Shown here: in pieces, positions 1,176-63,492 of the stretch
Position numbering within the stretch: position 1 is the stretch's first letter
How the letters are laid out: the number at the start of each line of letters is the position of its first letter
NCBI GenBank assembly: GCA_964560005.1
Contig: CAZLKB010000002.1
Coordinates: 192,381-256,380 of the forward strand
Source of the DNA: an uncultured Gammaproteobacteria bacterium
GTDB taxonomy: Bacteria > Patescibacteriota > Patescibacteriia > Patescibacteriales > GWC2-42-12
DNA: 64,000 nt
Direction: 5' to 3'
Made by a program: the position numbers and the translations under genes
Notes under the pieces: generated by a model
What the model was told of the DNA's origin: nothing
Database searches by the model: none
What the model saw: the letters and a program-made list of their open reading frames with translations, nothing else

Positions 1176-2651
1176 ATGGAAAAGATATATTTATACAATA
1201 CTTTAACCAGGAAAAAAGAGGAATTTAAGCCGATTAAAAAGGGTAAAATCGGTTTTTATCATTGCGGCCCCACGGTTTATTGGACCCAGCACATCGGCAA
1301 CCTGCGCGGCATGACCTGCGGCGATATAGTCGTGCGCAGTTTAAGGTATTTAGGCTATAAGGTGAAGCATGTCAGAAATTACACGGATGTCGGCCACTTG
1401 ATTTCCGACCAAGACCAGGGCGAGGACAAAATGGAAAAAGGCGCCAAACGCGAAGGCAAGACGCCGAAACAAGTCGCGGAAAAATATATTAAAGTTTTTG
1501 ATAATGACACGGCCGAGCTTAATCTTTTGGAGCCGGACAAGAAGCCCAGAGCCACCGAATATGTTAAAGAGATGATAGAAATGGTGCAAACTCTCGCGGC
1601 CAAAGGCTATGCTTACAACACCGATCTGGCGATCTATTTTGACACCACTAAAGCCAAAAATTACGGCCAACTTTCCGGGCAAGAAATTTCGGATAAACAA
1701 GCCGGCGCCGGCAGGGGCGAAGTGAGCGATCCGGAGAAAAAACATTCGGCGGATTTCGCTTTGTGGTTTTTTAAGGCCGGTTCGCATGAGCAAGCCATGC
1801 AATTTTGGCCGTCGCCCTTTAAGTCAAAATTAGCGGACAAGGGCTATGGTTTTCCCGGCTGGCACATTGAATGTTCGGCCATGAGCAAAAAATTGCTAGG
1901 CGATACCATTGATATTCATTTAGGCGGCATTGAGCATATCCCGGTGCATCATACCAATGAAATCGCCCAATCGGAAGCGGCCAATGGCGTTAAGTTCGTG
2001 AATTATTGGCTGCATAACGAGCATTTGCTGGTGAATGATAAAAAGATGTCCAAGTCGGCGGGTACGAGCTTCAGCCTGGCGGATGTTCAGGAAAAGGGCA
2101 TTGGCAATTCCTTGGTTTTGCGTTATTTTTTCTTACAAGCGCACTATCGCTCTAAGCAGAATTTTACCTGGGAAGCGCTAGCCGCCTCCGAAAATGGTTT
2201 TAATCACTTGGTTCACTTAGTTTGCGATTTAGGCGAGAAAACCGGCGTAATAAATAATGATTTCAAATTAAAATTTTCTAGCGCCCTAGCCGATGATTTT
2301 AATTTGCCTCAGGCCTTAGCCGTAGCCCAGGAGCTGTTTAAGTCTAATTTAGGCAACGCGGAAAAGTTGGCGACTATTCTGGATTTTGATAAAGTTTTGG
2401 GATTGGATTTAAAGAATAATTCTAAACTTAGGAGAACCTTTTTTTCTAAAAAAGTAAGCATCATTCCTAAATTCAGCTATATTAAATATCCCAAAGGAGT
2501 TGATAGTCTGGTTAAGAAGCTGTTTAAGGCCAGAGAGCGTGCCAGGCTTAATAAAGACTGGACGGAGTCCGACCGTTTGCGCCTGGAGATGGAAAAATTG
2601 GGCTGGAAGGTGGAAGATAGGAAAGAGGGGCAGAGAATTAGCAGGAAATAA
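1176..2651 (+). CDS. cysS: Cysteine--tRNA ligase
   Basis: Class I aaRS motifs: CGPTVY..HIGN (HIGH-like) and KMSKS (DKKMSKSAG). Length 491 aa. Confidence 0.95.
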   Translation: MEKIYLYNTLTRKKEEFKPIKKGKIGFYHCGPTVYWTQHIGNLRGMTCGDIVVRSLRYLGYKVKHVRNYTDVGHLISDQDQGEDKMEKGAKREGKTPKQVAEKYIKVFDNDTAELNLLEPDKKPRATEYVKEMIEMVQTLAAKGYAYNTDLAIYFDTTKAKNYGQLSGQEISDKQAGAGRGEVSDPEKKHSADFALWFFKAGSHEQAMQFWPSPFKSKLADKGYGFPGWHIECSAMSKKLLGDTIDIHLGGIEHIPVHHTNEIAQSEAANGVKFVNYWLHNEHLLVNDKKMSKSAGTSFSLADVQEKGIGNSLVLRYFFLQAHYRSKQNFTWEALAASENGFNHLVHLVCDLGEKTGVINNDFKLKFSSALADDFNLPQALAVAQELFKSNLGNAEKLATILDFDKVLGLDLKNNSKLRRTFFSKKVSIIPKFSYIKYPKGVDSLVKKLFKARERARLNKDWTESDRLRLEMEKLGWKVEDRKEGQRISRK

Positions 2652-2652
2652 G

Positions 2653-2698
2653 AGATGCTGAATCCCGCCCGAGGCGGGCAAGCAAGTTCAGCATGACA
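2653..2698. repeat. Hairpin repeat AGATGCTGAATC[19-nt insert]AAGTTCAGCATGACA (upstream copy)
   Basis: Same 27 nt as 3033-3059, interrupted at 2665-2683 by the GC-rich palindrome CCGCCCGAGGCGGGCAAGC. It also sits where a cysS terminator would be. Confidence 0.85.
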
Positions 2699-2708
2699 TT
2701 GCATACAT

Positions 2709-2735
2709 TGTCATTCCGGCCTCCGAGCCGGAATC
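2709..2735. repeat. GTCAT-anchored hairpin TGTCATTCCGGCCTCCGAGCCGGAATC
   Basis: 8-bp stem ATTCCGGC/GCCGGAAT. The same sequence recurs at 62254-62282. Confidence 0.85.
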
Positions 2736-2742
2736 TATTTTT

Positions 2743-3021
2743 ATGAGGAATAAAATGGGCTATATTTACATTATGGCTAATAAACCAAATGGTGTTTTGT
2801 ATATTGGAGTGACTTCAAATTTAGAGAATAGAATTTATCAACATAAGAATAATCTTATACCGGGCTTTACCTCAAAATATAATTTGAAAAATATTGTATA
2901 TTATGAAGTCTTCGATGATATTAGAGAGGCGATTAGTCGAGAAAAACAATTAAAAAATTGGCGGCGGCAATGGAAAATTGCTTTAATTGAAAAGGAAAAT
3001 CCTGGATGGAGAGATTTGTAA
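2743..3021 (+). CDS. GIY-YIG nuclease family protein (UPF0213/YhbQ-like, 92 aa)
   Basis: GYIYIM...VLYIGVTSNLENRIYQHK...REKQLKNW motif pattern typical of small GIY-YIG proteins. Confidence 0.9.
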   Translation: MRNKMGYIYIMANKPNGVLYIGVTSNLENRIYQHKNNLIPGFTSKYNLKNIVYYEVFDDIREAISREKQLKNWRRQWKIALIEKENPGWRDL

Positions 3022-3032
3022 AGTAAAATAAC

Positions 3033-3059
3033 AGATGCTGAATCAAGTTCAGCATGACA
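3033..3059. repeat. Hairpin repeat AGATGCTGAATCAAGTTCAGCATGACA (downstream, uninterrupted copy)
   Basis: Stem ATGCTGAA/TTCAGCAT. Direct repeat of 2653-2698 minus the insert. Confidence 0.85.
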
Positions 3060-3069
3060 GTTCTAAAAT

Positions 3070-4026
3070 ATGAATAATTTTTGGTCCTCCTTCGCTGAAG
3101 CTTCGGAGGATAAAGCAAAATTGAAAAAGCCTATTTACGCTCTGGCGCCCATGGCCGGAGTGGCGGACAGCGCTTTCAGGCAAATCTGCAAAGCTTACGG
3201 CGCGGATGTAGTCTATAGCGAAATGGCCAGCGCCGCCGCGCTGGCTTATAATCCGAAAAAAACTTTGGAATTATTAGAATTTTCTAAAAGCGAACGGCCG
3301 TATGTGGTTCAACTGTTCGGCGCTAAGCCGGATCATTTCGCTCGGGCAGTAAAAATCGTGGAAAAAAAAATTAAACCTGACGGCATTGATATAAATTTCG
3401 GCTGTCCGGTTAAAAAAGTCGCTCGCCAGGGCGCGGGCGCGGTGTTGATGGATAATTCTAAATTGGCGCGTGAAATAGTTGAAGCGACCATAAATAACAC
3501 CAATTTACCCTTGTCAATAAAAATAAGATCACGAGCCAGAAAGACTACGGCGTTAAATTTTTTAAAAGAAATGGCGGGGTTAGATATAAAAGCCGTGATG
3601 ATTCACGGACGGACCATGGCGCAGGGCCAGAGCGGGGAAGTGGATTGGAAAACCATAAAACGAGCGCGGCCGCTGGTCAAAGGGATTTTAATAGCCAATG
3701 GGGGAGTGAAGGACGCGTCGGATGCCGTAGAATTGCTTAAAAAGACCGGAGCTGACGGAATTGGAATAGGTCAAGGAGCCTTGGGAAGACCGTGGGTTTT
3801 TGAGGAAGTTAGAAGTAAGAAGTTAGAAGTAAGAAGAAAAGAAGAAATTTTCAGGGTGATGTTGAAACATGCCAAATTGGCGGAGAAGCTGAACGGCAAA
3901 CAAGGAATAGCGGAGATGCGAAAACATCTATGTTGGTATGTGAGTGGTTTGCCTAACGCCAGCAGTTTAAGGGAGCGATTGGTAAAGGTGGAAAGTTTAA
4001 GTGATATAAAAAAGATATTGAGGTAA
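3070..4026 (+). CDS. dus: tRNA-dihydrouridine synthase
   Basis: APMAGVADSAFRQIC...INFGCPVKKV...HGRT motifs of the Dus TIM-barrel family. Confidence 0.9.
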   Translation: MNNFWSSFAEASEDKAKLKKPIYALAPMAGVADSAFRQICKAYGADVVYSEMASAAALAYNPKKTLELLEFSKSERPYVVQLFGAKPDHFARAVKIVEKKIKPDGIDINFGCPVKKVARQGAGAVLMDNSKLAREIVEATINNTNLPLSIKIRSRARKTTALNFLKEMAGLDIKAVMIHGRTMAQGQSGEVDWKTIKRARPLVKGILIANGGVKDASDAVELLKKTGADGIGIGQGALGRPWVFEEVRSKKLEVRRKEEIFRVMLKHAKLAEKLNGKQGIAEMRKHLCWYVSGLPNASSLRERLVKVESLSDIKKILR

Positions 4027-4138
4027 TACTTTTTTTGTTTCCGCCCAAGACTGATACCTGCCTGCCGACAGGGGCTTTGTTAAAGGGGGCATATATGTTA
4101 TAATATAATTACTTGCTAAGAAGTAATTTTTTGATTTT

Positions 4139-4630
4139 ATGGCGATTATTAAATTCGGCAGACAGCCGGAAAAATCTTCATATAATATTGAAGTCTTGAA
4201 AGAAAGAGCCGCTTCGGGAACGGAGAAAGAAAGGATAAAAAAATTGGAGGAAGCCAGAAAGACGGTGATAGACGAAATTAACCAGGCGGAAAATATGGCG
4301 CCGCCGATGATCGGTCCGGTGGGCGGCGTTGCGGCGCCGACGATGCAAAGGCAAAAACAGATTGAAACCGTGCTGTCTTCCGGCTTAAACGAAATTTATT
4401 TAAATTTGACTCCGGAAAAACAAAAGCAATTTAAAAAGGCCGGCGAAGAAACCGCCGGCAAGATCAATCTTCTGCTGGCCAAGGCTAAAGTAAATATCGG
4501 AGCGATCATAAAATTAATCAGAAAATGGCTGTCGCTGATACCGGGCGTAAATAGGTATTTTCTAGAGCAGGAGGCGAAGATTAAGGCGGACGAGATATTA
4601 AAAATGAAAAATGAAAATCTCAAAATGTAA
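4139..4630 (+). CDS. Hypothetical protein (coiled-coil, 163 aa)
   Basis: Long ORF preceded by an extended -10 (TGTTATAAT at about 4098-4106). No recognisable domain. The 3' end is encoded by the left arm of a hairpin repeat. Confidence 0.6.
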   Translation: MAIIKFGRQPEKSSYNIEVLKERAASGTEKERIKKLEEARKTVIDEINQAENMAPPMIGPVGGVAAPTMQRQKQIETVLSSGLNEIYLNLTPEKQKQFKKAGEETAGKINLLLAKAKVNIGAIIKLIRKWLSLIPGVNRYFLEQEAKIKADEILKMKNENLKM

Positions 4631-4751
4631 AATATCAGTTTAAAGTGTAAAATTTGAATGCCTCTATTATGTAATTATGAACGACTTAAGGGAACGAAGC
4701 GATTTTAAATTTTACATTGTCATTTTCCATTTTGATTTTTACATTTTTAAC
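4598..4751. repeat. Long AT-rich inverted repeat (AAAATG/TGTAAAA words), homologous to 51288-51536
   Basis: Arms at 4598-4657 and 4701-4751. The 33-mer 4719-4751 is 31/33 identical to the reverse complement of 51288-51320. The 22-mer 4703-4724 is identical to 51440-51461. Confidence 0.8.
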
Positions 4752-4759
4752 TTTTTACC

Positions 4760-8210: not shown

Positions 8211-8334
8211 ATTTTCAATTTTCAATTTTCAATTCTCAATTTTCAAACAATTTTCAATTTTTCAATGATTTAATTTAAAAATTAAGTCATTTAATCATTG
8301 TTTAAAAATTAAAAATTGAAAATTGAAAATTTTT
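8211..8334. repeat. Word-based long hairpin (TTTTCAA words vs TTGAAAA)
   Basis: The left arm is tandem ATTTTCA/ATTCTCA words. The right arm AAAAATTGAAAATTGAAAAT is their reverse complement. Confidence 0.8.
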
Positions 8335-8337
8335 ATT

Positions 8338-10454: not shown

Positions 10455-10518
10455 TGCGGGATCGTCCCAGTCATACGACGGGACAGATCCAATGGTAAGA
10501 CATCGCCCTCTGGAGGCG
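10455..10518 (+). pseudogene. Truncated 5' fragment of tRNA-Gln carrying a 23-nt palindromic insertion
   Basis: 10455-10467 plus 10491-10518 are identical to tRNA positions 1-42 of the intact gene at 10833. The 23-nt insert CAGTCATACGACGGGACAGATCC (10468-10490) lies in the D-loop. No T-arm or 3' acceptor strand follows. Confidence 0.85.
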
Positions 10519-10556
10519 CCCTATCATTCGATAGGGCGCCATGTCGAATGACATGG
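10515..10556. repeat. Two small palindromes at the break point of the tRNA fragment
   Basis: GGCGCCCTATC-ATTC-GATAGGGCGCC (perfect 11-bp stem) followed by CATGTC-GAAT-GACATG. Confidence 0.8.
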
Positions 10557-10571
10557 CGAGTTGATATTGTT

Positions 10572-10832
10572 ATGTATTATGTTTATATATTATTGTTAAA
10601 CAATAAACAGTTATATACTGGTTATACAGATGATTTAAAGAGGAGAATAGCAGAGCATAAAGCTGGTAGTAGTAAATTTACGAGCTGTAGATTACCTGTC
10701 AGTTTAATTCATTACGAAGCATATTTACTAGAATCTGATGCTAGAAGAAGAGAAAAATATCTTAAAACGACAGAAGGCAAAAGATTTTTAAGACAACAAT
10801 TAAAAGATTTAATAGAAAATATTAAAAATTAA
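10572..10832 (+). CDS. GIY-YIG nuclease family protein (UPF0213-like, about 86 aa)
   Basis: YYVYILLL..QLYTGYTDDLKRRIAEHK...RREKYLK motifs. The ORF track starts at 10548 inside the palindrome, so ATG 10572 is preferred. The stop codon abuts the tRNA. Confidence 0.85.
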   Translation: MYYVYILLLNNKQLYTGYTDDLKRRIAEHKAGSSKFTSCRLPVSLIHYEAYLLESDARRREKYLKTTEGKRFLRQQLKDLIENIKN

Positions 10833-10903
10833 TGCGGGATCGTCCAATGGTAAGACATCGCCCTCTGGAGGCGAGTATCTTGGTTCGAATCCAAGTCCCG
10901 CAA
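10833..10903 (+). tRNA. tRNA-Gln (anticodon CUG)
   Basis: Manual cloverleaf: acceptor TGCGGGA/TCCCGCA, D stem GTC/GAC, anticodon stem TCGCC/GGCGA with loop CTCTGGA (CTG at 10865-10867), T arm CTTGG-TTCGAAT-CCAAG. CCA is not encoded. Confidence 0.9.
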
Positions 10904-10911
10904 CAGCTATA

Positions 10912-27271: not shown

Positions 27272-27446
27272 TTGACTAACTAGTGAAAGCATAAATTTAT
27301 AAATAATTTTATATTTTCTCTGCAAGAAATGTAAATTTACATTTTTTACAGAGTAAATGTAATTTTGCTTTGAAGATTCGTCTTCATGAACTTTGGACAA
27401 CAGCAAACAATTAACCAAAACCAAAACAGAAACAGAAAGACAAACA

Positions 27447-28880
27447 ATGAAGAAAATTAATGTAGCGCTAGTTCTGCTAGCAATCGGCCTCTGGCAAGCG
27501 CCGGAGGGTTACTCACAGCCGTTTTCGTACAACGATAACGGTTACACTGGCTATGGCCCGGTTTTGGGCGGACCGCAGACAGGCTGGGTTTTTAACTTAA
27601 CCCAGACTACAAACACCTTCCGGGTCGGGGATAATCCCTACGGACTGCTGTATGTTAGCAATATAACGGCGGACCATTACTACACGGTTCAGGTCTGGAA
27701 GGAAGGAACCTTCCTCTACGATTATATCTTCGGCACCAACGTGGTTTCGGGGACGGCCTGGGCCAGGTCTTATTGCTGGGGCGAAATGTCCAACCCGACG
27801 CCGGGAAATTGGGCGTTCAAAATATTCATCACTTACGGCGGTGTAACCCAGCTGGTTGATACCCTGCCGTTCACGGTGGTGGAAACATCCGGCTATAAGC
27901 CGTTTACCTATAACGACACGGCTTACGCCGGCTATGGTCCGATCCTGGGCGGGGCGACTAACGGCTGGATTTTCAGCCTTTCGTCAAGGACTAATGTGTT
28001 CAAGGTCGGGGATCATCCCTACGCCTTACTGTGGGTCAACAACATCTCTGCCGACCACTACTACAAGGTGGAAGTTTGGAAGGAAGGATCCTTCCTTTAC
28101 AACTATATCTTCGGCACCAACATTGTTTCGGGAGTTGCCTGGGAGCGGTCGTATTGCTGGGGCGAGATGGCGAATCCCGCGCCGGGAAATTATGCGTTCA
28201 AATTCTTTATCACTTACGGCGTGACCAACACCGAGCTGTTGGATACGGTGCCGTTCACGGTGGCGGAGATACCCGACTGGAAGCCGTTCTCGTACGACGA
28301 CAACGGCCAAACCGGTTATGGTCCGCTAACGGGCGGGGCGACTAACGGCTGGATTTTCAACCTAGCTCAGGCCGCCAGCGTCTTCCAGACCGGAGATCAT
28401 GTATATGGGCTTTTACACGTTACCAACGTGTCGGTGGATCATATATTCACCGTAGAGATCTTAAAGGAAGGAGTCTTGGTTCATTCCTATGTATTTGGAA
28501 CCAACTTGGTGCAGGGCGGTACCTGGCCAAGAAGTTACTGCTGGGCGGAGTTGGATAATGCGTCGCTGGGCAACTGGGCCTTTAGAATCTCAGTTACTTA
28601 CAGTAACACGACAGAGGTGCTTGACACTCTGCCGTTCACGGTCGGCGAAACCCCGCCTATTGAGATGCCGATTCTGGCTATCAGGCGAGGGGAAACCAAT
28701 TCGGTGATCCTAAGTTGGCCGGCGACATTCACCGGCTTCGCGCTGCAGTCTCGCGAGAGCCTGGCGCCAGGCGTGCCCTGGCAGACCATAGTCGGGACAA
28801 CGCAAACGTTGACCGACAACACCTGGCAGGTTCGTCTGCCGCGTACCGATCCTCAACAATTTTTCCGCCTAATCAAGTAA
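27447..28880 (+). CDS. Secreted protein with three ~128-aa tandem repeats, encoded by a GC-rich island
   Basis: Signal MKKINVALVLLAIGLWQAPEGYSQ (ATG 27447). Three copies of PF.YND.G.TGYGP..GG...GW.F.L......F..GD..Y.LL.V.N...DH.Y.V...KEG...Y.FGTN.V.G..W.RSYCW.E. C-terminal tail ...PQQFFRLIK. Confidence 0.8.
   Translation: MKKINVALVLLAIGLWQAPEGYSQPFSYNDNGYTGYGPVLGGPQTGWVFNLTQTTNTFRVGDNPYGLLYVSNITADHYYTVQVWKEGTFLYDYIFGTNVVSGTAWARSYCWGEMSNPTPGNWAFKIFITYGGVTQLVDTLPFTVVETSGYKPFTYNDTAYAGYGPILGGATNGWIFSLSSRTNVFKVGDHPYALLWVNNISADHYYKVEVWKEGSFLYNYIFGTNIVSGVAWERSYCWGEMANPAPGNYAFKFFITYGVTNTELLDTVPFTVAEIPDWKPFSYDDNGQTGYGPLTGGATNGWIFNLAQAASVFQTGDHVYGLLHVTNVSVDHIFTVEILKEGVLVHSYVFGTNLVQGGTWPRSYCWAELDNASLGNWAFRISVTYSNTTEVLDTLPFTVGETPPIEMPILAIRRGETNSVILSWPATFTGFALQSRESLAPGVPWQTIVGTTQTLTDNTWQVRLPRTDPQQFFRLIK
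27516..28661 (+). repeat. In-frame tandem repeat, 3 units of 381-384 bp
   Basis: Unit starts at 27516, 27897 and 28281 (xAGCCGTT...). Each unit ends with CTGCCGTTCACGGT. Confidence 0.85.
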
Positions 28881-38669: not shown

Positions 38670-38812
38670 AATTTTCAATTTACAATTTTCAATTTTCAAT
38701 GAATTTTCAATTTATTAATTTTCAAATCACAAATAGCATTTTTGAAAATTTAAGAATTGAATCATTGAAAATTGTTTGAAAATTTGAAAATTTGTGAATT
38801 GAAAATTGAAAA
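38670..38812. repeat. Word-based long hairpin (ATTTTCA words vs TGAAAAT)
   Basis: Left arm 38670-38728, right arm 38741-38812. The right arm overlaps the TTG start proposed by the ORF track for mreB. Confidence 0.85.
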
Positions 38813-38820
38813 TTATTGTT

Positions 38821-51283: not shown

Positions 51284-51287
51284 AAAA

Positions 51288-51536
51288 GTTTAAAATGTAA
51301 AAATCAAAATGAAAAATGACAGTTTAAAATGTAAAATTGAAATACCGCTTTAATTATTATTACGAGCGGCTGACAAGAGCGAAGCAATCTTTGGTTCGAA
51401 GCAGTTACCCGAGATTGCTTAGTCGCGATGACAGAAAAATTTTAAATTTTACATTGTCATTGCTCTGCAATGACCCCGCATCTGCGAGGTGCTAGCGGAG
51501 CTGGTATTTTACATTTTGTGATTTAAATTTTTCATT
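51288..51536. repeat. Long AT-rich inverted repeat, homologous to 4598-4751, with nested GC-richer inserts
   Basis: Left arm 51288-51342. The right arm 51435-51461 + 51505-51536 is split by a 43-nt insert (51462-51504). The central module contains GCGAAGCAATCT...AGATTGCTTAGTCGC. Confidence 0.85.
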
Positions 51537-60273: not shown

Positions 60274-62244
60274 ATGAAAAACAATGAAATAAAAATTAAA
60301 CACAGTTCATCCAGCTTGTCGGAATTCGTTAAAAGGCCATTACCCAACGACGACGAAGTAGCAGCTTTTGAAAAGTACGCCGTGAACGAAGCCAAAGAAA
60401 CAGAAATAAAAGACAGCCTGGCCAGGATCTATAAAGATGACCGCGGCGAAAAGCTTGATATTAAAACTTTAACCGTTAAACCAAGACGGGGTTTTTTATT
60501 TAACTTATTTTCTTTTATTATAGTGGTATTCATTTTAGGAGGCTCGGCTTATGCGATTTATAATTATATTTATCTTAAAGTTAATATTGTTAAGCAGCCG
60601 ATTAGCCTTAATATTTCGGCCTTAAAAGAAGTCGCCGCCGGCGAAGAATTTTATTACAGCCTGGATTACAAAAACGAAGACAATGTGGCCATCAACAATA
60701 TTGAAATTAAAGTCCAATATCCTAACAGCTTTATTTTCATAGAGAGCGAGCCGGCGCCGAGCAAAAATAACGACACCTGGGAAATCGCTGGTTTGGGCGC
60801 TCATCGCAGTAATATTATCAAAATAAAAGGCAAATTAGCCGGAAAATTGGACACCAACAACATTATTATCGCCGATATGGTCTATCGGCCGGAAAATTTT
60901 TCCAGTGAATTTAAAAAATCAGCCGTTTTTGAAATGAAAATCAATGATCTGGGTTTGGATTTTAATTTCGTAAACACTAACAGCGTCTTGGTTAATGAAG
61001 CCAGCGAGATTTTAATAAAATTTAAAGCCAAGGAAGAAAACTATATTAATAATTTTCGCTTAAGCCTGGACTATCCCGAAGAAGCGCAAATTTTAAACAA
61101 GGCGGAAGACTATAAAACGGCCACCGGCACGCCGTCTATTTCTTTAATTCAAACCAACGGCTTAGCTTCCTGGCTGGTCGGCAATTTGGGCGAAAATGAA
61201 AACGAAATTAAAATAAACTTTAAAGTTAAAGAAAAAAAGCAGCCCGGCATTAATTTTAAATTAAAGTTTGAATTGCCGGTATCGGCTTCTCCCGACCAGC
61301 CGTCTAAGTACTATTTATTTTACGAAAAAGATTTAAGCTACGAGATAATTAAAAGCGATTTAAACATCAATCTGATCGTCAACGGATCGCCTTTAGACCA
61401 GCCGATTAATTTCGGTGAAACTTTGAATTATTCAATAAATTACGCCAACAAGGGTGAAACTTTAATGAAAGATGTGATTATCATGGCGGTTTTGGAAAGC
61501 GATTTCCTTGATTGGCTTAGTTTAACCGATCAAAATAATGGCAAAGTTAGCGGCAATACGATCAGCTGGAGCAAAACGGAAATTCCCGGTTTAGCCGAAT
61601 TGGCCAGCGGCGCCGAAGGAGCGATTGATTTGGCCATTAAAGTCAAGCCGTTGGCCGCCATTGATTTAAGCAAAACTTATCAGATAAAAAGCTATATAAA
61701 ATACAGCGTTCTAGGCAAGAGCGCCAGCGGAGAAAATCAAAGCAATACCATTATCAATAAAATCAATAGCGATTTAAGCTTAAGCGAACAGTTAAGATAT
61801 TTCAGCGATGATAATATGGCCGTGGGCTCCGGGCCTTTGCCGCCGAAAGTCGGCCAAGCCACCAGCCTAAAAGTCTACTGGACCATAAGCAATAACCTCC
61901 ATGAATTGGATAATTTGCGAGTTAGCGTGGCCTTGCCGAATAATATCAGATGGGATGGAAAAAATCGGTCGTCAACCGGCTCCATAAATTATGACAGTCA
62001 AACCAATCAGGTGGTCTGGCAGATTGATCATTTATCAATCATGGGCTTTAAAACCGAAGCGGAATTTAATTTAAGCCTCTTGCCCCAAGAAGCCGATCGC
62101 AATAAGATTATGGTCATACTGCCTGGCACTGATTTTACCGCCACCGATCTTGAAACCGGCGTAACCATCAGCAAAACCCTAAAAGCTAAAACTTCAAAAC
62201 TGGAAGATGATAATATGGTAAGCGGGGACGGAGTAGTACAGTAA
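60274..62244 (+). CDS. Membrane-anchored surface protein with DUF11-like repeat domains
   Basis: N-terminal TM. Repeated G(E)...Y...Y.N.G......V/I beta-sandwich-type modules. Confidence 0.55.
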   Translation: MKNNEIKIKHSSSSLSEFVKRPLPNDDEVAAFEKYAVNEAKETEIKDSLARIYKDDRGEKLDIKTLTVKPRRGFLFNLFSFIIVVFILGGSAYAIYNYIYLKVNIVKQPISLNISALKEVAAGEEFYYSLDYKNEDNVAINNIEIKVQYPNSFIFIESEPAPSKNNDTWEIAGLGAHRSNIIKIKGKLAGKLDTNNIIIADMVYRPENFSSEFKKSAVFEMKINDLGLDFNFVNTNSVLVNEASEILIKFKAKEENYINNFRLSLDYPEEAQILNKAEDYKTATGTPSISLIQTNGLASWLVGNLGENENEIKINFKVKEKKQPGINFKLKFELPVSASPDQPSKYYLFYEKDLSYEIIKSDLNINLIVNGSPLDQPINFGETLNYSINYANKGETLMKDVIIMAVLESDFLDWLSLTDQNNGKVSGNTISWSKTEIPGLAELASGAEGAIDLAIKVKPLAAIDLSKTYQIKSYIKYSVLGKSASGENQSNTIINKINSDLSLSEQLRYFSDDNMAVGSGPLPPKVGQATSLKVYWTISNNLHELDNLRVSVALPNNIRWDGKNRSSTGSINYDSQTNQVVWQIDHLSIMGFKTEAEFNLSLLPQEADRNKIMVILPGTDFTATDLETGVTISKTLKAKTSKLEDDNMVSGDGVVQ

Positions 62245-62253
62245 TACGGCCTG

Positions 62254-62282
62254 GTGTCATTCCGGCCTCCGAGCCGGAATCC
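62254..62282. repeat. GTCAT-anchored hairpin (same sequence as 2709-2735)
   Basis: GTGTCATTCCGGCCTCCGAGCCGGAATCC. Confidence 0.85.
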
Positions 62283-62316
62283 AGATTTCACGAATGGTGT
62301 AAAAACTAAAAAAATG

Positions 62317-62342
62317 GATCCCGGGTCAAGCCCGGGATGACA
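62317..62342. repeat. GTCAT-anchored hairpin, variant, in inverted orientation
   Basis: GGATCCCGGGTCAAGCCCGGGATGACA. The reverse complement is TGTCATCCCGGGCTTGACCCGGGATCC. Confidence 0.85.
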
Positions 62343-62352
62343 AAACAGAAAC

Positions 62353-63492
62353 ATGTTCAAGATTCTAAAAAAATCCAAAATTTCCAAGGCTCGCCTTGGT
62401 TTAATAGAAACGCAGCACGGGAGGTTAACCACTCCCTTTTTTATGCCTGACGCCACCTTCGGGCAGATAAAGAATTTAAGCAATCAAGATTTGACAAGTT
62501 TGGATTTAGGCTGCTTGGTTGTTAATACCCTGCACTTATCCTTGCGCCCGGGCGTTAAAATAGTAAAAAAAATCCACGGCTTACATAATTACACCGGCTG
62601 GCAGAGGCCGATTTTGTCGGATAGCGGCGGTTATCAGGTTTTTTCGCTTATCCACAGAAATTCAAACCTAGCTCAAGGAAAAATCACCGATCACGGCGCA
62701 ATTTTTTCCTCGCCCTTGAACGGAGAAAAGATTAAATTAACGCCGGAGCAATCAATTAAAATACAATTTGACTTGGGCGCGGATATGGTGGTTTGCCTGG
62801 ATGATTGCCCGCCCAACGATTACGAAGACGCTAAGCTAGAAATCGCGGTTAAGCGCACGATCGGCTGGGCCAAAAGATGCTTTAAGGAGTTTAATAAGCA
62901 AGTAGAGATCCGTTCGCTAAAAAATAAGCGGCCGCTGATTTTCGCCGTCAGCCAGGGCGGGAAAAATCTAGCCTTAAGAAAATACTGCACCGAAGAACTT
63001 TTAAAAATCGGTTTTGACGGCATCGGTTTCGGCGCCAGGCATGTTGACGAGTCGGGAAAATTTTTAGATCAAGCTTTAAAAAGCAACGCGGAGTCCATTC
63101 CGGAAAATAAATTGCGCTTCGGCCTGGGTATCGGCTTGCCCTTTGATATAATCAGGTCGGTTAAAATGGGCTGGGATATGTTTGATTGCGTGATTCCGAC
63201 TCGGGAAGGCAGGCACGGCAGGCTTTTTCTTTGGAAAAGAAAGCCTAATTTTAATACGGATAATTTTTATGAAGCGATTAACATCACTAATGCAAAATTC
63301 GCCAAAGATTTTTCGCCGATTAACGAGAATAGCCGGCTGCCGGAATTACAAGAAAATTCCAAAGCCTATTTGAATTATTTATTTAAAATAAAGGAGCCGA
63401 CGGCTCTTCGTCTAGCCAGCTTGAATAATCTTGAATTTTATCTTAAACTATTAAGTGAAATCAGGCATCTTATAGATCAGAATGGATTTTAA
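62353..63492 (+). CDS. tgt: tRNA-guanine transglycosylase (queuine tRNA-ribosyltransferase)
   Basis: TPFFMPDAT, SDSGGYQVFSL, VSQGG and FDCVIPTR..RHG motifs. The C-terminal Zn site is absent (see findings). Confidence 0.85.
   Translation: MFKILKKSKISKARLGLIETQHGRLTTPFFMPDATFGQIKNLSNQDLTSLDLGCLVVNTLHLSLRPGVKIVKKIHGLHNYTGWQRPILSDSGGYQVFSLIHRNSNLAQGKITDHGAIFSSPLNGEKIKLTPEQSIKIQFDLGADMVVCLDDCPPNDYEDAKLEIAVKRTIGWAKRCFKEFNKQVEIRSLKNKRPLIFAVSQGGKNLALRKYCTEELLKIGFDGIGFGARHVDESGKFLDQALKSNAESIPENKLRFGLGIGLPFDIIRSVKMGWDMFDCVIPTREGRHGRLFLWKRKPNFNTDNFYEAINITNAKFAKDFSPINENSRLPELQENSKAYLNYLFKIKEPTALRLASLNNLEFYLKLLSEIRHLIDQNGF

Follow-up and report, generated by a model that had tools for sequence, protein, structure and literature searches.

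Near the end of the window, by which we mean the whole 64-kb stretch of DNA analysed here, two short hairpins stand in inverted orientation between the gene of a DUF11-repeat protein and tgt, with no nuclease gene between them. What kind of element is such a pair? The original prediction saw in it a possible empty or vestigial site of a GIY-YIG nuclease, and grouped it with further GTCAT-anchored hairpins of the window as parts of a system that would be uncharacterised.

The hairpin pair at 62255-62342

The host genome belongs to the Patescibacteria, close to Ca. Falkowbacteria. The pair occupies a 108-nt gap between the gene for the DUF11-repeat protein (656 aa, 60274-62244, + strand) and tgt (62353-63492, + strand), and begins 11 nt past the DUF11 stop codon. 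Its left hairpin region, GTGTCATTCCGGCCTCCGAGCCGGAATCC (62254-62282), holds a type B Ssn-related motif (62255..62284, + strand; the term is explained below), laid out as T-GTC, a ATTCCGGC stem (62259-62266), a CTCCGA loop, a GCCGGAAT stem (62273-62280) and CCAG. An A+T-rich spacer (62285..62313) separates it from a type C Ssn-related motif (62314..62342, - strand), which reads TGTC, ATCCCGGG, cttga, CCCGGGAT, CCAT on the - strand. The inverted partner hairpin, GGATCCCGGGTCAAGCCCGGGATGACA, had been placed at 62317-62342, 35 nt after the first; it is present, with its start one position earlier (62316-62342) and a gap from GTGTCATTCCGGCCTCCGAGCCGGAATCC of ~33 nt.

Both arms carry GTC directly 5' of an 8-bp ATxxxxxx stem and CC directly 3' of it. 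The orientation of the pair is convergent, with GTCAT reading inward from both ends, and the differing stems of the two arms would avoid a long perfect palindrome. When the 108-nt intergenic region is folded as ssDNA, both hairpins form (-21.5 kcal/mol, z = -4.1).

The left hairpin also has a twin ~60 kb away, next to the first GIY-YIG gene of the window. The reported identity of 62254-62282 with 2709-2735 is real, its exact extent being 27 nt shared without mismatch (62255-62281 = 2709-2735, 5' of that gene). The 26-nt core of the left hairpin occurs in two exact copies in the window, with 0.00 expected in shuffled sequences.

The Ssn nuclease family and the hairpins of the window

Hairpins of this build, and a small GIY-YIG enzyme that acts on them, are the subject of a recent study, in which the Ssn/NTS-SRM system was described and biochemically tested (Chenal et al. 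2025, Nat Commun, March 2025; PMC11893778). The Neisseria NTS is CGTCATTCCCGCGMAVGCGGGAATCYRG, with palindrome arms CGTCATTCCCGCG..GCGGGAATCYRG; its generalised form, found around SsnA homologues, was named the "Ssn-related motif" (SRM), a hairpin of 20-50 nt with GTC(A/T)(C/T) abutting the 5' arm (PMC11893778). SsnA, a protein of 94 aa with one GIY-YIG domain, binds the NTS only as ssDNA and cuts a few nt upstream of it; it does not act on the reverse strand, on duplex DNA or on RNA (PMC11893778). Binding needs a C after the palindrome and cutting needs 3 nt before it, mutating Y6, Y17 and E64 abolishes cutting, and giving the Neisseria motif a new stem sequence abolishes activity even with the hairpin kept (PMC11893778). 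In N. meningitidis, SsnA lowers transformation by NTS-carrying DNA (PMC11893778). SRMs lie near 71% of ssn homologues, on both sides in 42%, and a Wolbachia genome is rich in SRM repeats (PMC11893778). The typical layout is NTS-ssnA-NTS, which the authors compared with insertion sequences and with REP/RAYT (PMC11893778); the REP/RAYT analogy drawn in the original prediction is therefore apt.

The presumed cognate enzyme of the window is encoded at 2755..3021 (+ strand), between cysS and dus and ~60 kb from the hairpin pair. Its product is an 88-aa single-domain GIY-YIG protein (PF01541, E 1.8e-19, residues 5-78 of the 92-aa ORF, with no further domain detected). As the Neisseria comparator we used the N. 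gonorrhoeae chromosome (2.17 Mb, two records filed as plasmids in PLSDB). A tblastn search of this chromosome with the window protein found one place (E 4e-26), and BLASTP against the product encoded there gave 58% identity over 85 aa with no gaps (E 8e-37), within the E < 1e-10 limit used for SsnA homology in PMC11893778. The matched N. gonorrhoeae locus has NTS repeats on its flanks and, from these flanks and the residue numbering, we infer that it is ssnA. Residues Y5/Y16/E63 of the window protein align gap-free with SsnA Y6/Y17/E64. By homology, catalytic residues and motif flanks, the product of 2755-3021 is a probable member of the Ssn family. The idea of an uncharacterised system is overturned by this match and by the published description (PMC11893778). 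NCBIfam holds no specific family for the window nuclease, and a PDB search returned no solved relative of it. Looking for exact copies of the proteins gave no hit for Tgt and, for the ssn product, only an identical 4-kb contig.

The proposed link between the hairpins and a ~90-aa GIY-YIG gene is borne out at this locus, where ssn is bracketed by convergent motifs at 2710(+) and 3058(-), with 2697(-) besides. A type B motif (2709..2737, + strand) lies 5' of ssn, 19 nt before the start codon. On the 3' side, 13 nt past the gene and convergent with the 5' motif, a type A motif (3033..3059, - strand) reads TGTC, ATGCTGAA, cttga, TTCAGCAT, C on the - strand. A second type A motif (2653..2698, - strand) stands directly past the cysS stop codon, and its loop holds a nested hairpin, CCCGCC cga GGCGGG. 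Motif flanks on both sides of ssn homologues are also seen in L164-L168 and in the Shewanella loci L169-L172.

The association had been extended to a second small GIY-YIG gene (10572-10832, adjoining tRNA-Gln), and this part did not stand. The second protein is 38% identical to the Neisseria protein over 64 aa (pairwise E 1e-7) and 36% identical to the product of the first gene, and its gene is not flanked by SRM-type motifs but has its own hairpin type. We place it in a different, tRNA-gene-linked subfamily, outside the Ssn/SRM system.

That subfamily shows a layout of its own. In 9/9 loci examined, the gene abuts a tRNA gene; each locus has a truncated second tRNA copy and an inverted GTC-NNNN-GAC hairpin pair, which is inserted at CG^A of the truncated copy, most often in the T loop. 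A literature search found no description of a tRNA-linked GIY-YIG gene with a truncated tRNA and a hairpin pair.

How many hairpins of the SRM kind the window holds depends on the definition applied. The published SRM string, HGTCWYN(0-2)YYVSBRHN(0-5)WNVSBRGN(0-2)RNCYNB, was implemented with the N. gonorrhoeae ssnA locus as positive control, where it matched 8 sites within 3.2 kb; the first six of these alternate in strand (+/-) and make up three convergent pairs. Taken literally, the string matches 1/5 of the window hairpins, the right arm of our pair (0.03 expected); the left arm departs from it at a single position, with C in place of the required R, and its flanks, GTCATTCC...GGAATCCAG, agree with the NTS consensus (consensus end GGAATCYRG). 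Because the string finds only one of the five, we used a structural scan instead. It required GTCAT with the AT as the first two bases of a mismatch-free stem (8 bp or longer), a 3-26-nt loop, and a C adjoining the stem on its 3' side.

The structural scan of the window returned five sites, 2697(-), 2710(+), 3058(-), 62256(+) and 62341(-); 500 dinucleotide shuffles averaged 0.006 and never gave more than 1. With stems of at least 6 bp there were 6 sites, compared with 0.87 +/- 0.99 in the shuffles. All hairpin sites in the window are intergenic, and in 5/5 of the window hairpins the stem is preceded by GTC and followed by C. Chance is excluded as their origin.

The five hairpins thus form one family with the GTCAT architecture originally described. 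The other sites quoted in support of it (2653-2698, 3033-3059 and 51457-51474) are present as written, but the last differs: at 51457-51474 (GTCATTGCtctGCAATGAC) the stem after GTC is only 5 bp, and the site belongs to a different, degenerate TGCGAG-type subfamily. Remains of TGCGAG-type motifs span 51340..51476, as ..GAGCGAAGCAATCT .. GAGATTGCTTAGTCGCGATGACA, followed by a mini-palindrome, TGTCATTGCtctGCAATGAC; intact counterparts, TGTCATTGCGAG..CGAAGCAATCTC // GAGATTGC..CTCGCAATGACA, are found in L003, L006 and L174.

Relatives of the window enzyme extend this picture. Those with an Ssn 81-83% identical have it in the same cysS-ssn-dus slot, with an identical type B hairpin 5' of the gene, and a 70% identical Shewanella Ssn lies inside BIME-like arrays of alternating ATTCCGG(C)(+) / ATCCCTGA(-) motifs. 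With the type B hairpin kept beside the sister enzymes and its stem in the Shewanella arrays, enzyme and ATTCCGGC stem travel together across phyla. The Shewanella arrays, like the left arm, are missed by the literal SRM string, which is therefore narrower than the family; the ATTCCGGC-stem subtype lies outside the published operational SRM definition.

Taken together, these observations suggest that the pair at 62255-62342 is a gene-less convergent SRM (NTS-like) doublet, the target-site type of Ssn nucleases, a reading to which we give a probability of roughly 75%. The basis in hand is family membership, pair geometry, nuclease homology and, as described below, recurrence of the unit in unrelated contexts.

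If so, each motif would act as a DNA hairpin that forms once the DNA is single-stranded, and the GTC 5' of the stem and the C 3' of it would be the elements read by Ssn nucleases. Going by the Neisseria work, the resident Ssn (2755-3021) would bind the folded motif via its stem and 3' C, with a nick predicted a few nt 5' of GTCAT, which puts it at about 62250 for the top strand and about 62346 for the bottom one. Since the motifs face each other, each strand would carry one readable motif, and whichever strand turns single-stranded, in DNA uptake, replication or repair, would receive one cut at the outer edge of the unit. Cutting of these hairpins by a CPR Ssn is what the Neisseria enzyme leads us to expect, and the biological role would be, as in Neisseria, control of incoming or exposed ssDNA. 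Patescibacteria are ultra-small episymbionts with tiny genomes, thought to be dependent on DNA uptake, and a role in ssDNA restriction is plausible for them. One and the same enzyme may fail to read some of the window's three stem types (ATTCCGGC, ATCCCGGG and ATGCTGAA), because a change of stem abolished activity in Neisseria.

Gene-less pairs in relatives and metagenomes

The geometry of the pair equals that of the occupied cassette, namely (+) motif, gene, (-) motif, and its left arm matches exactly the motif that stands 5' of the resident ssn, so that one might picture an ssn gene once present between the hairpins and since deleted, or a site still awaiting its gene. The relatives speak against this. 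The DUF11-tgt synteny is kept in ~35 related loci, the best-matching Tgt among the species-representative genomes being 71% identical, and none of these ~35 has a GIY-YIG gene between DUF11 and tgt; the whole 620 kb of syntenic loci contains one distant GIY-YIG match. The 36-nt spacer has no remnant of the ssn cassette (2736-3034), scoring 11 against it compared with 9.8 +/- 1.4 for shuffled sequences, of which 138/500 did as well, and relatives keep ssn at a stable position, the cysS-dus slot.

The same gap varies in content among the relatives. Many DUF11-tgt gaps measure just 6-50 nt and have no motif, and an SRM pair fills the gap in six loci (the window, L002, L003, L006, L007 and L008), reaching from a few nt past the stop codon to within 4-11 nt of the tgt start in five loci (67 nt in L008); in L017 the gap holds a single motif. 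The distant locus L008 (Tgt 61% identical), on whose short contig a DUF11 homologue is present with 26% identity over 216 aa, has the same B-C unit in its DUF11-tgt gap in the opposite orientation, whereas relatives closer than L008 have other motif or stem types there, or none. The orthologous pairs in L002 and L006 have each kept one arm, and a different hairpin has taken the place of the other. L006 also contains a true dRS3/NTS-type copy.

A metagenome scan with the type B hairpin, in which motifs within 150 nt were counted as neighbours, gave at least 120 loci. Neighbouring motifs among the loci listed are oriented +- in 40 cases, -+ in 2, ++ in 8 and -- in 7, and the excess of convergent (40) over divergent (2) pairs is strong (binomial P = 4e-10). 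Short-spacer convergent pairs make up 40/57 of the neighbouring pairs in these loci and are the majority form, the spacers of the gene-less ones being mostly ~10-90 nt. A C directly follows the stem in 194/210 motifs of the metagenome loci listed. An ssn-like gene is present in only 4/120 of them, a point against the Ssn reading; most of these contigs are short, and the enzyme would act in trans.

Given this dominance of convergent pairs, the gene-less convergent pair is the normal form of the repeat. On the reading preferred here, the pair in the window has the same build as an SRM-ssn-SRM cassette without the gene and is not a decayed gene. The proposal of an empty or vestigial GIY-YIG site is therefore unsupported, with a gene in 0/~35 syntenic gaps, no cassette remnant and gene-less pairs as the commonest form, and loss or future arrival of an ssn gene is a very unlikely account of this locus.

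The B-spacer-C unit itself recurs in L008, L090, L093 and L154, with unrelated flanks. Sequence likeness between the units sets in at GTCAT and breaks off at ATGAC, with CCAG on the inner side of every hairpin, and the ATTTC that follows the left motif (CCAGATTTC) is common to the B-C units of L008 and L093 (CCAGTTTTC).

Two accounts place the function of the hairpins at the level of RNA. On the first, they would be terminators or REP-like 3' stabilisers of the DUF11 mRNA, with no nuclease link. Both stems are strong, the start of the pair 11 nt past the DUF11 stop codon suits such a role, as does the filling of the same gap by SRM pairs in five other loci, and the right hairpin is followed by T7, giving a terminator-like score on the - strand. 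This is the sole terminator-like site in 62245-62352; the + strand has none. On the coding (+) strand neither hairpin is followed by a T run, and for that reason an intrinsic terminator of the upstream gene was rejected. The - strand T run is missing from the B-C units of L008 and L093, and a terminator needs neither a conserved GTC and C outside its stem nor cross-phylum conservation of that stem with a nuclease. We regard this account as improbable, and the hairpins might still have a secondary effect on transcripts.

On the second, the pair would be a gene for a small RNA like WsnRNA46 of Wolbachia. Rfam RF02625 aligns with 62252-62342 (- strand) at 21 bits (E 0.05), and the matched columns are the ends, TGTCAT / GGGATCCA / CTGGATTCC / ATGACA. 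The model ends, UGUCAU...GGGAUCCAG // CUGGAUUCC...AUGACA, are the ends that an SRM pair has; the interior is unrelated, and the score is far under the RF02625 gathering score of 65.3 bits. The model pairs its left half with its right half, whereas the two halves of the window pair have different stems and fold separately. The DUF11-tgt gap has no promoter-like site, and at gathering scores Rfam finds only tRNA-Gln in the window. We consider a small RNA gene very improbable. The resemblance is better explained by the richness of Wolbachia in SRM repeats: more likely, an SRM pair of Wolbachia served as the template when the WsnRNA46 family was modelled.

A reading of a different kind concerns how the doublets spread, on which our view stays conditional. 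SRM pairs may be non-autonomous, REPIN- or MITE-like units mobilised or copied in trans by Ssn, with SRM-ssn-SRM as the autonomous form. We put this forward tentatively, because the units are sharply bounded by GTCAT...ATGAC in otherwise unrelated surroundings, because the B-C unit of the distant L008 lies reversed in the same gap while closer relatives differ, because the two window copies, one of them abutting ssn, are identical over 27 nt, and because in L002 and L006 the orthologous pairs have one arm swapped and the rest conserved. Unit recurrence, the inversion in L008 and the arm swaps are more easily accounted for by turnover or mobility than by plain vertical descent. Against mobility, we know of no joining activity for a GIY-YIG hydrolase, and the ssn gene looks positionally stable in the cysS-dus slot; a search for a filled and an empty site at high flank identity found no such pair, the best Tgt relative being 71% identical. 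If this reading is true, the elements would make up a new class, with hairpin ends and dependence on ssDNA, and SRM-ssn-SRM would be its autonomous version.

Meaning and relation to known systems

Reading the pair as a gene-less SRM doublet places the Ssn/hairpin-repeat system, by sequence homology, in Patescibacteria (CPR). The system as such was already known; new here are the phylum and a stem subtype beyond the published string, which overlooks the widespread ATTCCGGC-stem form that is present around the 70% identical Shewanella enzyme too. The 40:2 convergent bias among the metagenome loci listed and the recurrent occupation of the same gap bear on whether such pairs have been domesticated as ssDNA restriction sites or still move as an element. 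For annotation, pairs of this type are to be labelled as SRM repeats, and not as terminators, small ORFs or sRNAs.

Among mobile elements, IS200/IS605 share with the present system subterminal hairpins that are read on ssDNA and cleavage a few nt from the hairpin. There, however, both hairpins are on one strand, whereas here they are on opposite strands; the enzyme fold is another, and Ssn is not known to transpose.

REP/BIME/REPIN repeats with their RAYT enzymes resemble the system in other ways. Both have short extragenic hairpins, rich in G+C and arranged as inverted pairs; in both, the genome has one or few copies of a repeat-flanked nuclease gene, and the hairpins are recognised as ssDNA. 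RAYT, though, is an HUH/Y1 enzyme (IS200/IS605-like) that cuts and rejoins DNA, while Ssn is a GIY-YIG hydrolase with no known strand transfer and has no sequence relationship to it. The window system is thus REPIN/RAYT-like in its working but is not a REPIN/RAYT system, its enzyme being of the GIY-YIG type.

Another comparable layout is that of the NIME of Neisseria, dRS3-RS-dRS3 units in which dRS3 is ATTCCC-N8-GGGAAT (PMC1797815). Like the pair described here, NIME consist of two inverted 20-bp hairpin repeats around a short spacer of lower G+C, and occupy intergenic, syntenic positions with variable content; convergent pairs of this sort are visible at ssnA in N. gonorrhoeae. The window differs in its stems, ATTCCGGC..GCCGGAAT and ATCCCGGG..CCCGGGAT in place of ATTCCC-N8-GGGAAT, and in having single units in place of long arrays.

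The nearest counterpart is the Ssn/SRM system itself. The two have in common a single-domain GIY-YIG enzyme of ~90 aa (58% identical, with catalytic residues aligned), repeats with a 5' GTCAT and a 3' C, convergent repeats that bracket the gene, and many gene-less intergenic copies. They differ in the host phylum, Patescibacteria being absent from the main text of PMC11893778; in the main stem, which here is ATTCCGGC with a CTCCGA or CTTGA loop and falls just outside the published string; in the arms of one pair, which here are usually unlike in stem; and in the enzyme, which in the present case we know through its predicted protein sequence.

tRNA-linked GIY-YIG loci

Beside the Ssn family of ~90-aa single-domain GIY-YIG nucleases, the window encodes a second GIY-YIG protein (gene at 10572-10832), which is a member of a separate subfamily that is abundant in Patescibacteria.

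A tRNA gene adjoins the gene of this subfamily in all nine loci examined: five have tRNA-Gln(CTG) 0-6 nt downstream of it, three have tRNA-Met, tRNA-Ser or tRNA-Glu immediately upstream, and in one the nuclease gene sits within a tRNA cluster. The tRNA-linked GIY-YIG cassette spans 10457-10904 in the window and, among loci from related genomes, metagenomes or plasmid records, 1464-1905 in L174, 1347-1836 in L175, 1453-1920 in L177, 1075-1560 in L179 and 1093-1538 in L181. Next to the nuclease gene stands a truncated second tRNA copy that bears an inverted pair of small hairpins, each with the layout stem-GTC-ATTC/ATAC-GAC-stem and followed by CG, the second being of the same type on the opposite strand. 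The point at which this pair is inserted into the truncated copy is CG^A. Four loci have this site in the T loop (GGTTCG^A); in the window it follows the anticodon stem, and in L174 it falls within the anticodon loop. Duplication leaves an intact tRNA in place, involving the 5' part of the tRNA in the Gln cases and the 3' part together with the terminator in L179. These loci look like a tRNA-gene-targeting mini GIY-YIG cassette, and a literature search returned no paper describing one.

The pseudo-tRNA-Gln upstream of the second GIY-YIG gene carries a 22-nt insert, CAGTCATACGACGGGACAGATC, in its D-arm (10470-10491), which pairs with the pseudo-tRNA's own GGATCGTCC to form a hairpin. L174 and L177 have the same insert, and L175 has an analogous one. 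The L174 pseudo-tRNA matches the tRNA of the window and not its local tRNA-Gln, as if it had travelled together with the GIY-YIG cassette.

Repeats within the window and around the motifs

Tandem A+T-rich heptamers in an inverted layout, (TTTTCAA)n ... (TTGAAAA)n, make up intergenic regions of the window (8213-8335 and 38670-38816), and inverted heptamer arrays likewise lie upstream of tgt in the related loci L004, L005, L007, L008 and L033. The heptamer is genome-specific among relatives, for example AATTCCC, AATGACA, TTCCAAA or ACAAGAT, and in L007 and L008 the arrays enclose the pair of Ssn-related motifs (SRMs, GTC-hairpin-C repeats) as a long outer inverted repeat. A 37-nt A+T-rich repeat, GTCATTTTCCATTTTGATTTTTACATTTTTAACTTTT, begins with GTCAT and contains no hairpin; its two inverted copies, at 4719-4755 (plus strand) and 51284-51320 (minus strand), are identical at 35 of 37 positions, and both are adjoined by degenerate remains of TGCGAG-type motifs. 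TTTTACATTGTCAT recurs further at 2700, 4709 and 51446. Separately, the ORF at 27393-28880 contains three tandem units of ~381-384 nt (27618-28651) that are 62-79% identical, and its protein therefore has an internally repeated domain.

Ssn genes and their motifs in other genomes

Hairpins identical to the core of NTS, the Neisseria form of the SRM (TGTCATTCCCGCGAAGGCGGGAATCCAG), are present in Patescibacteria genomes, at 1585-1612 (minus strand) in L006 and at 1231-1299 in L009, where they form a homotypic pair that immediately precedes a small ferredoxin-like ORF. In Neisseria itself, PLSDB files two N. gonorrhoeae records of 2.17 Mb as plasmids. The ssnA frame of NZ_CP119142.1 (L173, 1494-1773) has no in-frame ATG: the ATG at 1494 is off the frame by one and meets a stop after 10 codons, and the only ORF listed there is a 71-aa one with a TTG start. 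The gonococcal ssnA in this record may be frameshifted. Gene callers report the Ssn proteins of sister genomes (L164-L168; entries P0002 and P0004) as 104 aa because the ORF runs on through the 3' hairpin, and the "tails" of many such small database proteins are translated repeat sequence.

In Shewanella metagenome and genome contigs (L169-L172), an Ssn homologue with 70% identity sits inside BIME-like arrays of 12-16 alternating motifs (~2200-4450), with the forms GTC ATTCCGG(C)...CCAGGT on the plus strand and GTC ATCCCTGA...CCAGGT on the minus strand. Motif copy number differs among strains, and the published SRM search string gave no matches to the array motifs of these contigs. Rfam family RF02625, WsnRNA46 (Wolbachia sRNA 46), compared here with the minus strand of the window at 62252-62342, has UGUCAU..GGGAUCCAG and CUGGAUUCC..AUGACA as the two ends of its consensus; these ends are the signature of an SRM pair, and what the family models may be a repeat pair of the Ssn system that is transcribed, not an sRNA gene in its own right.
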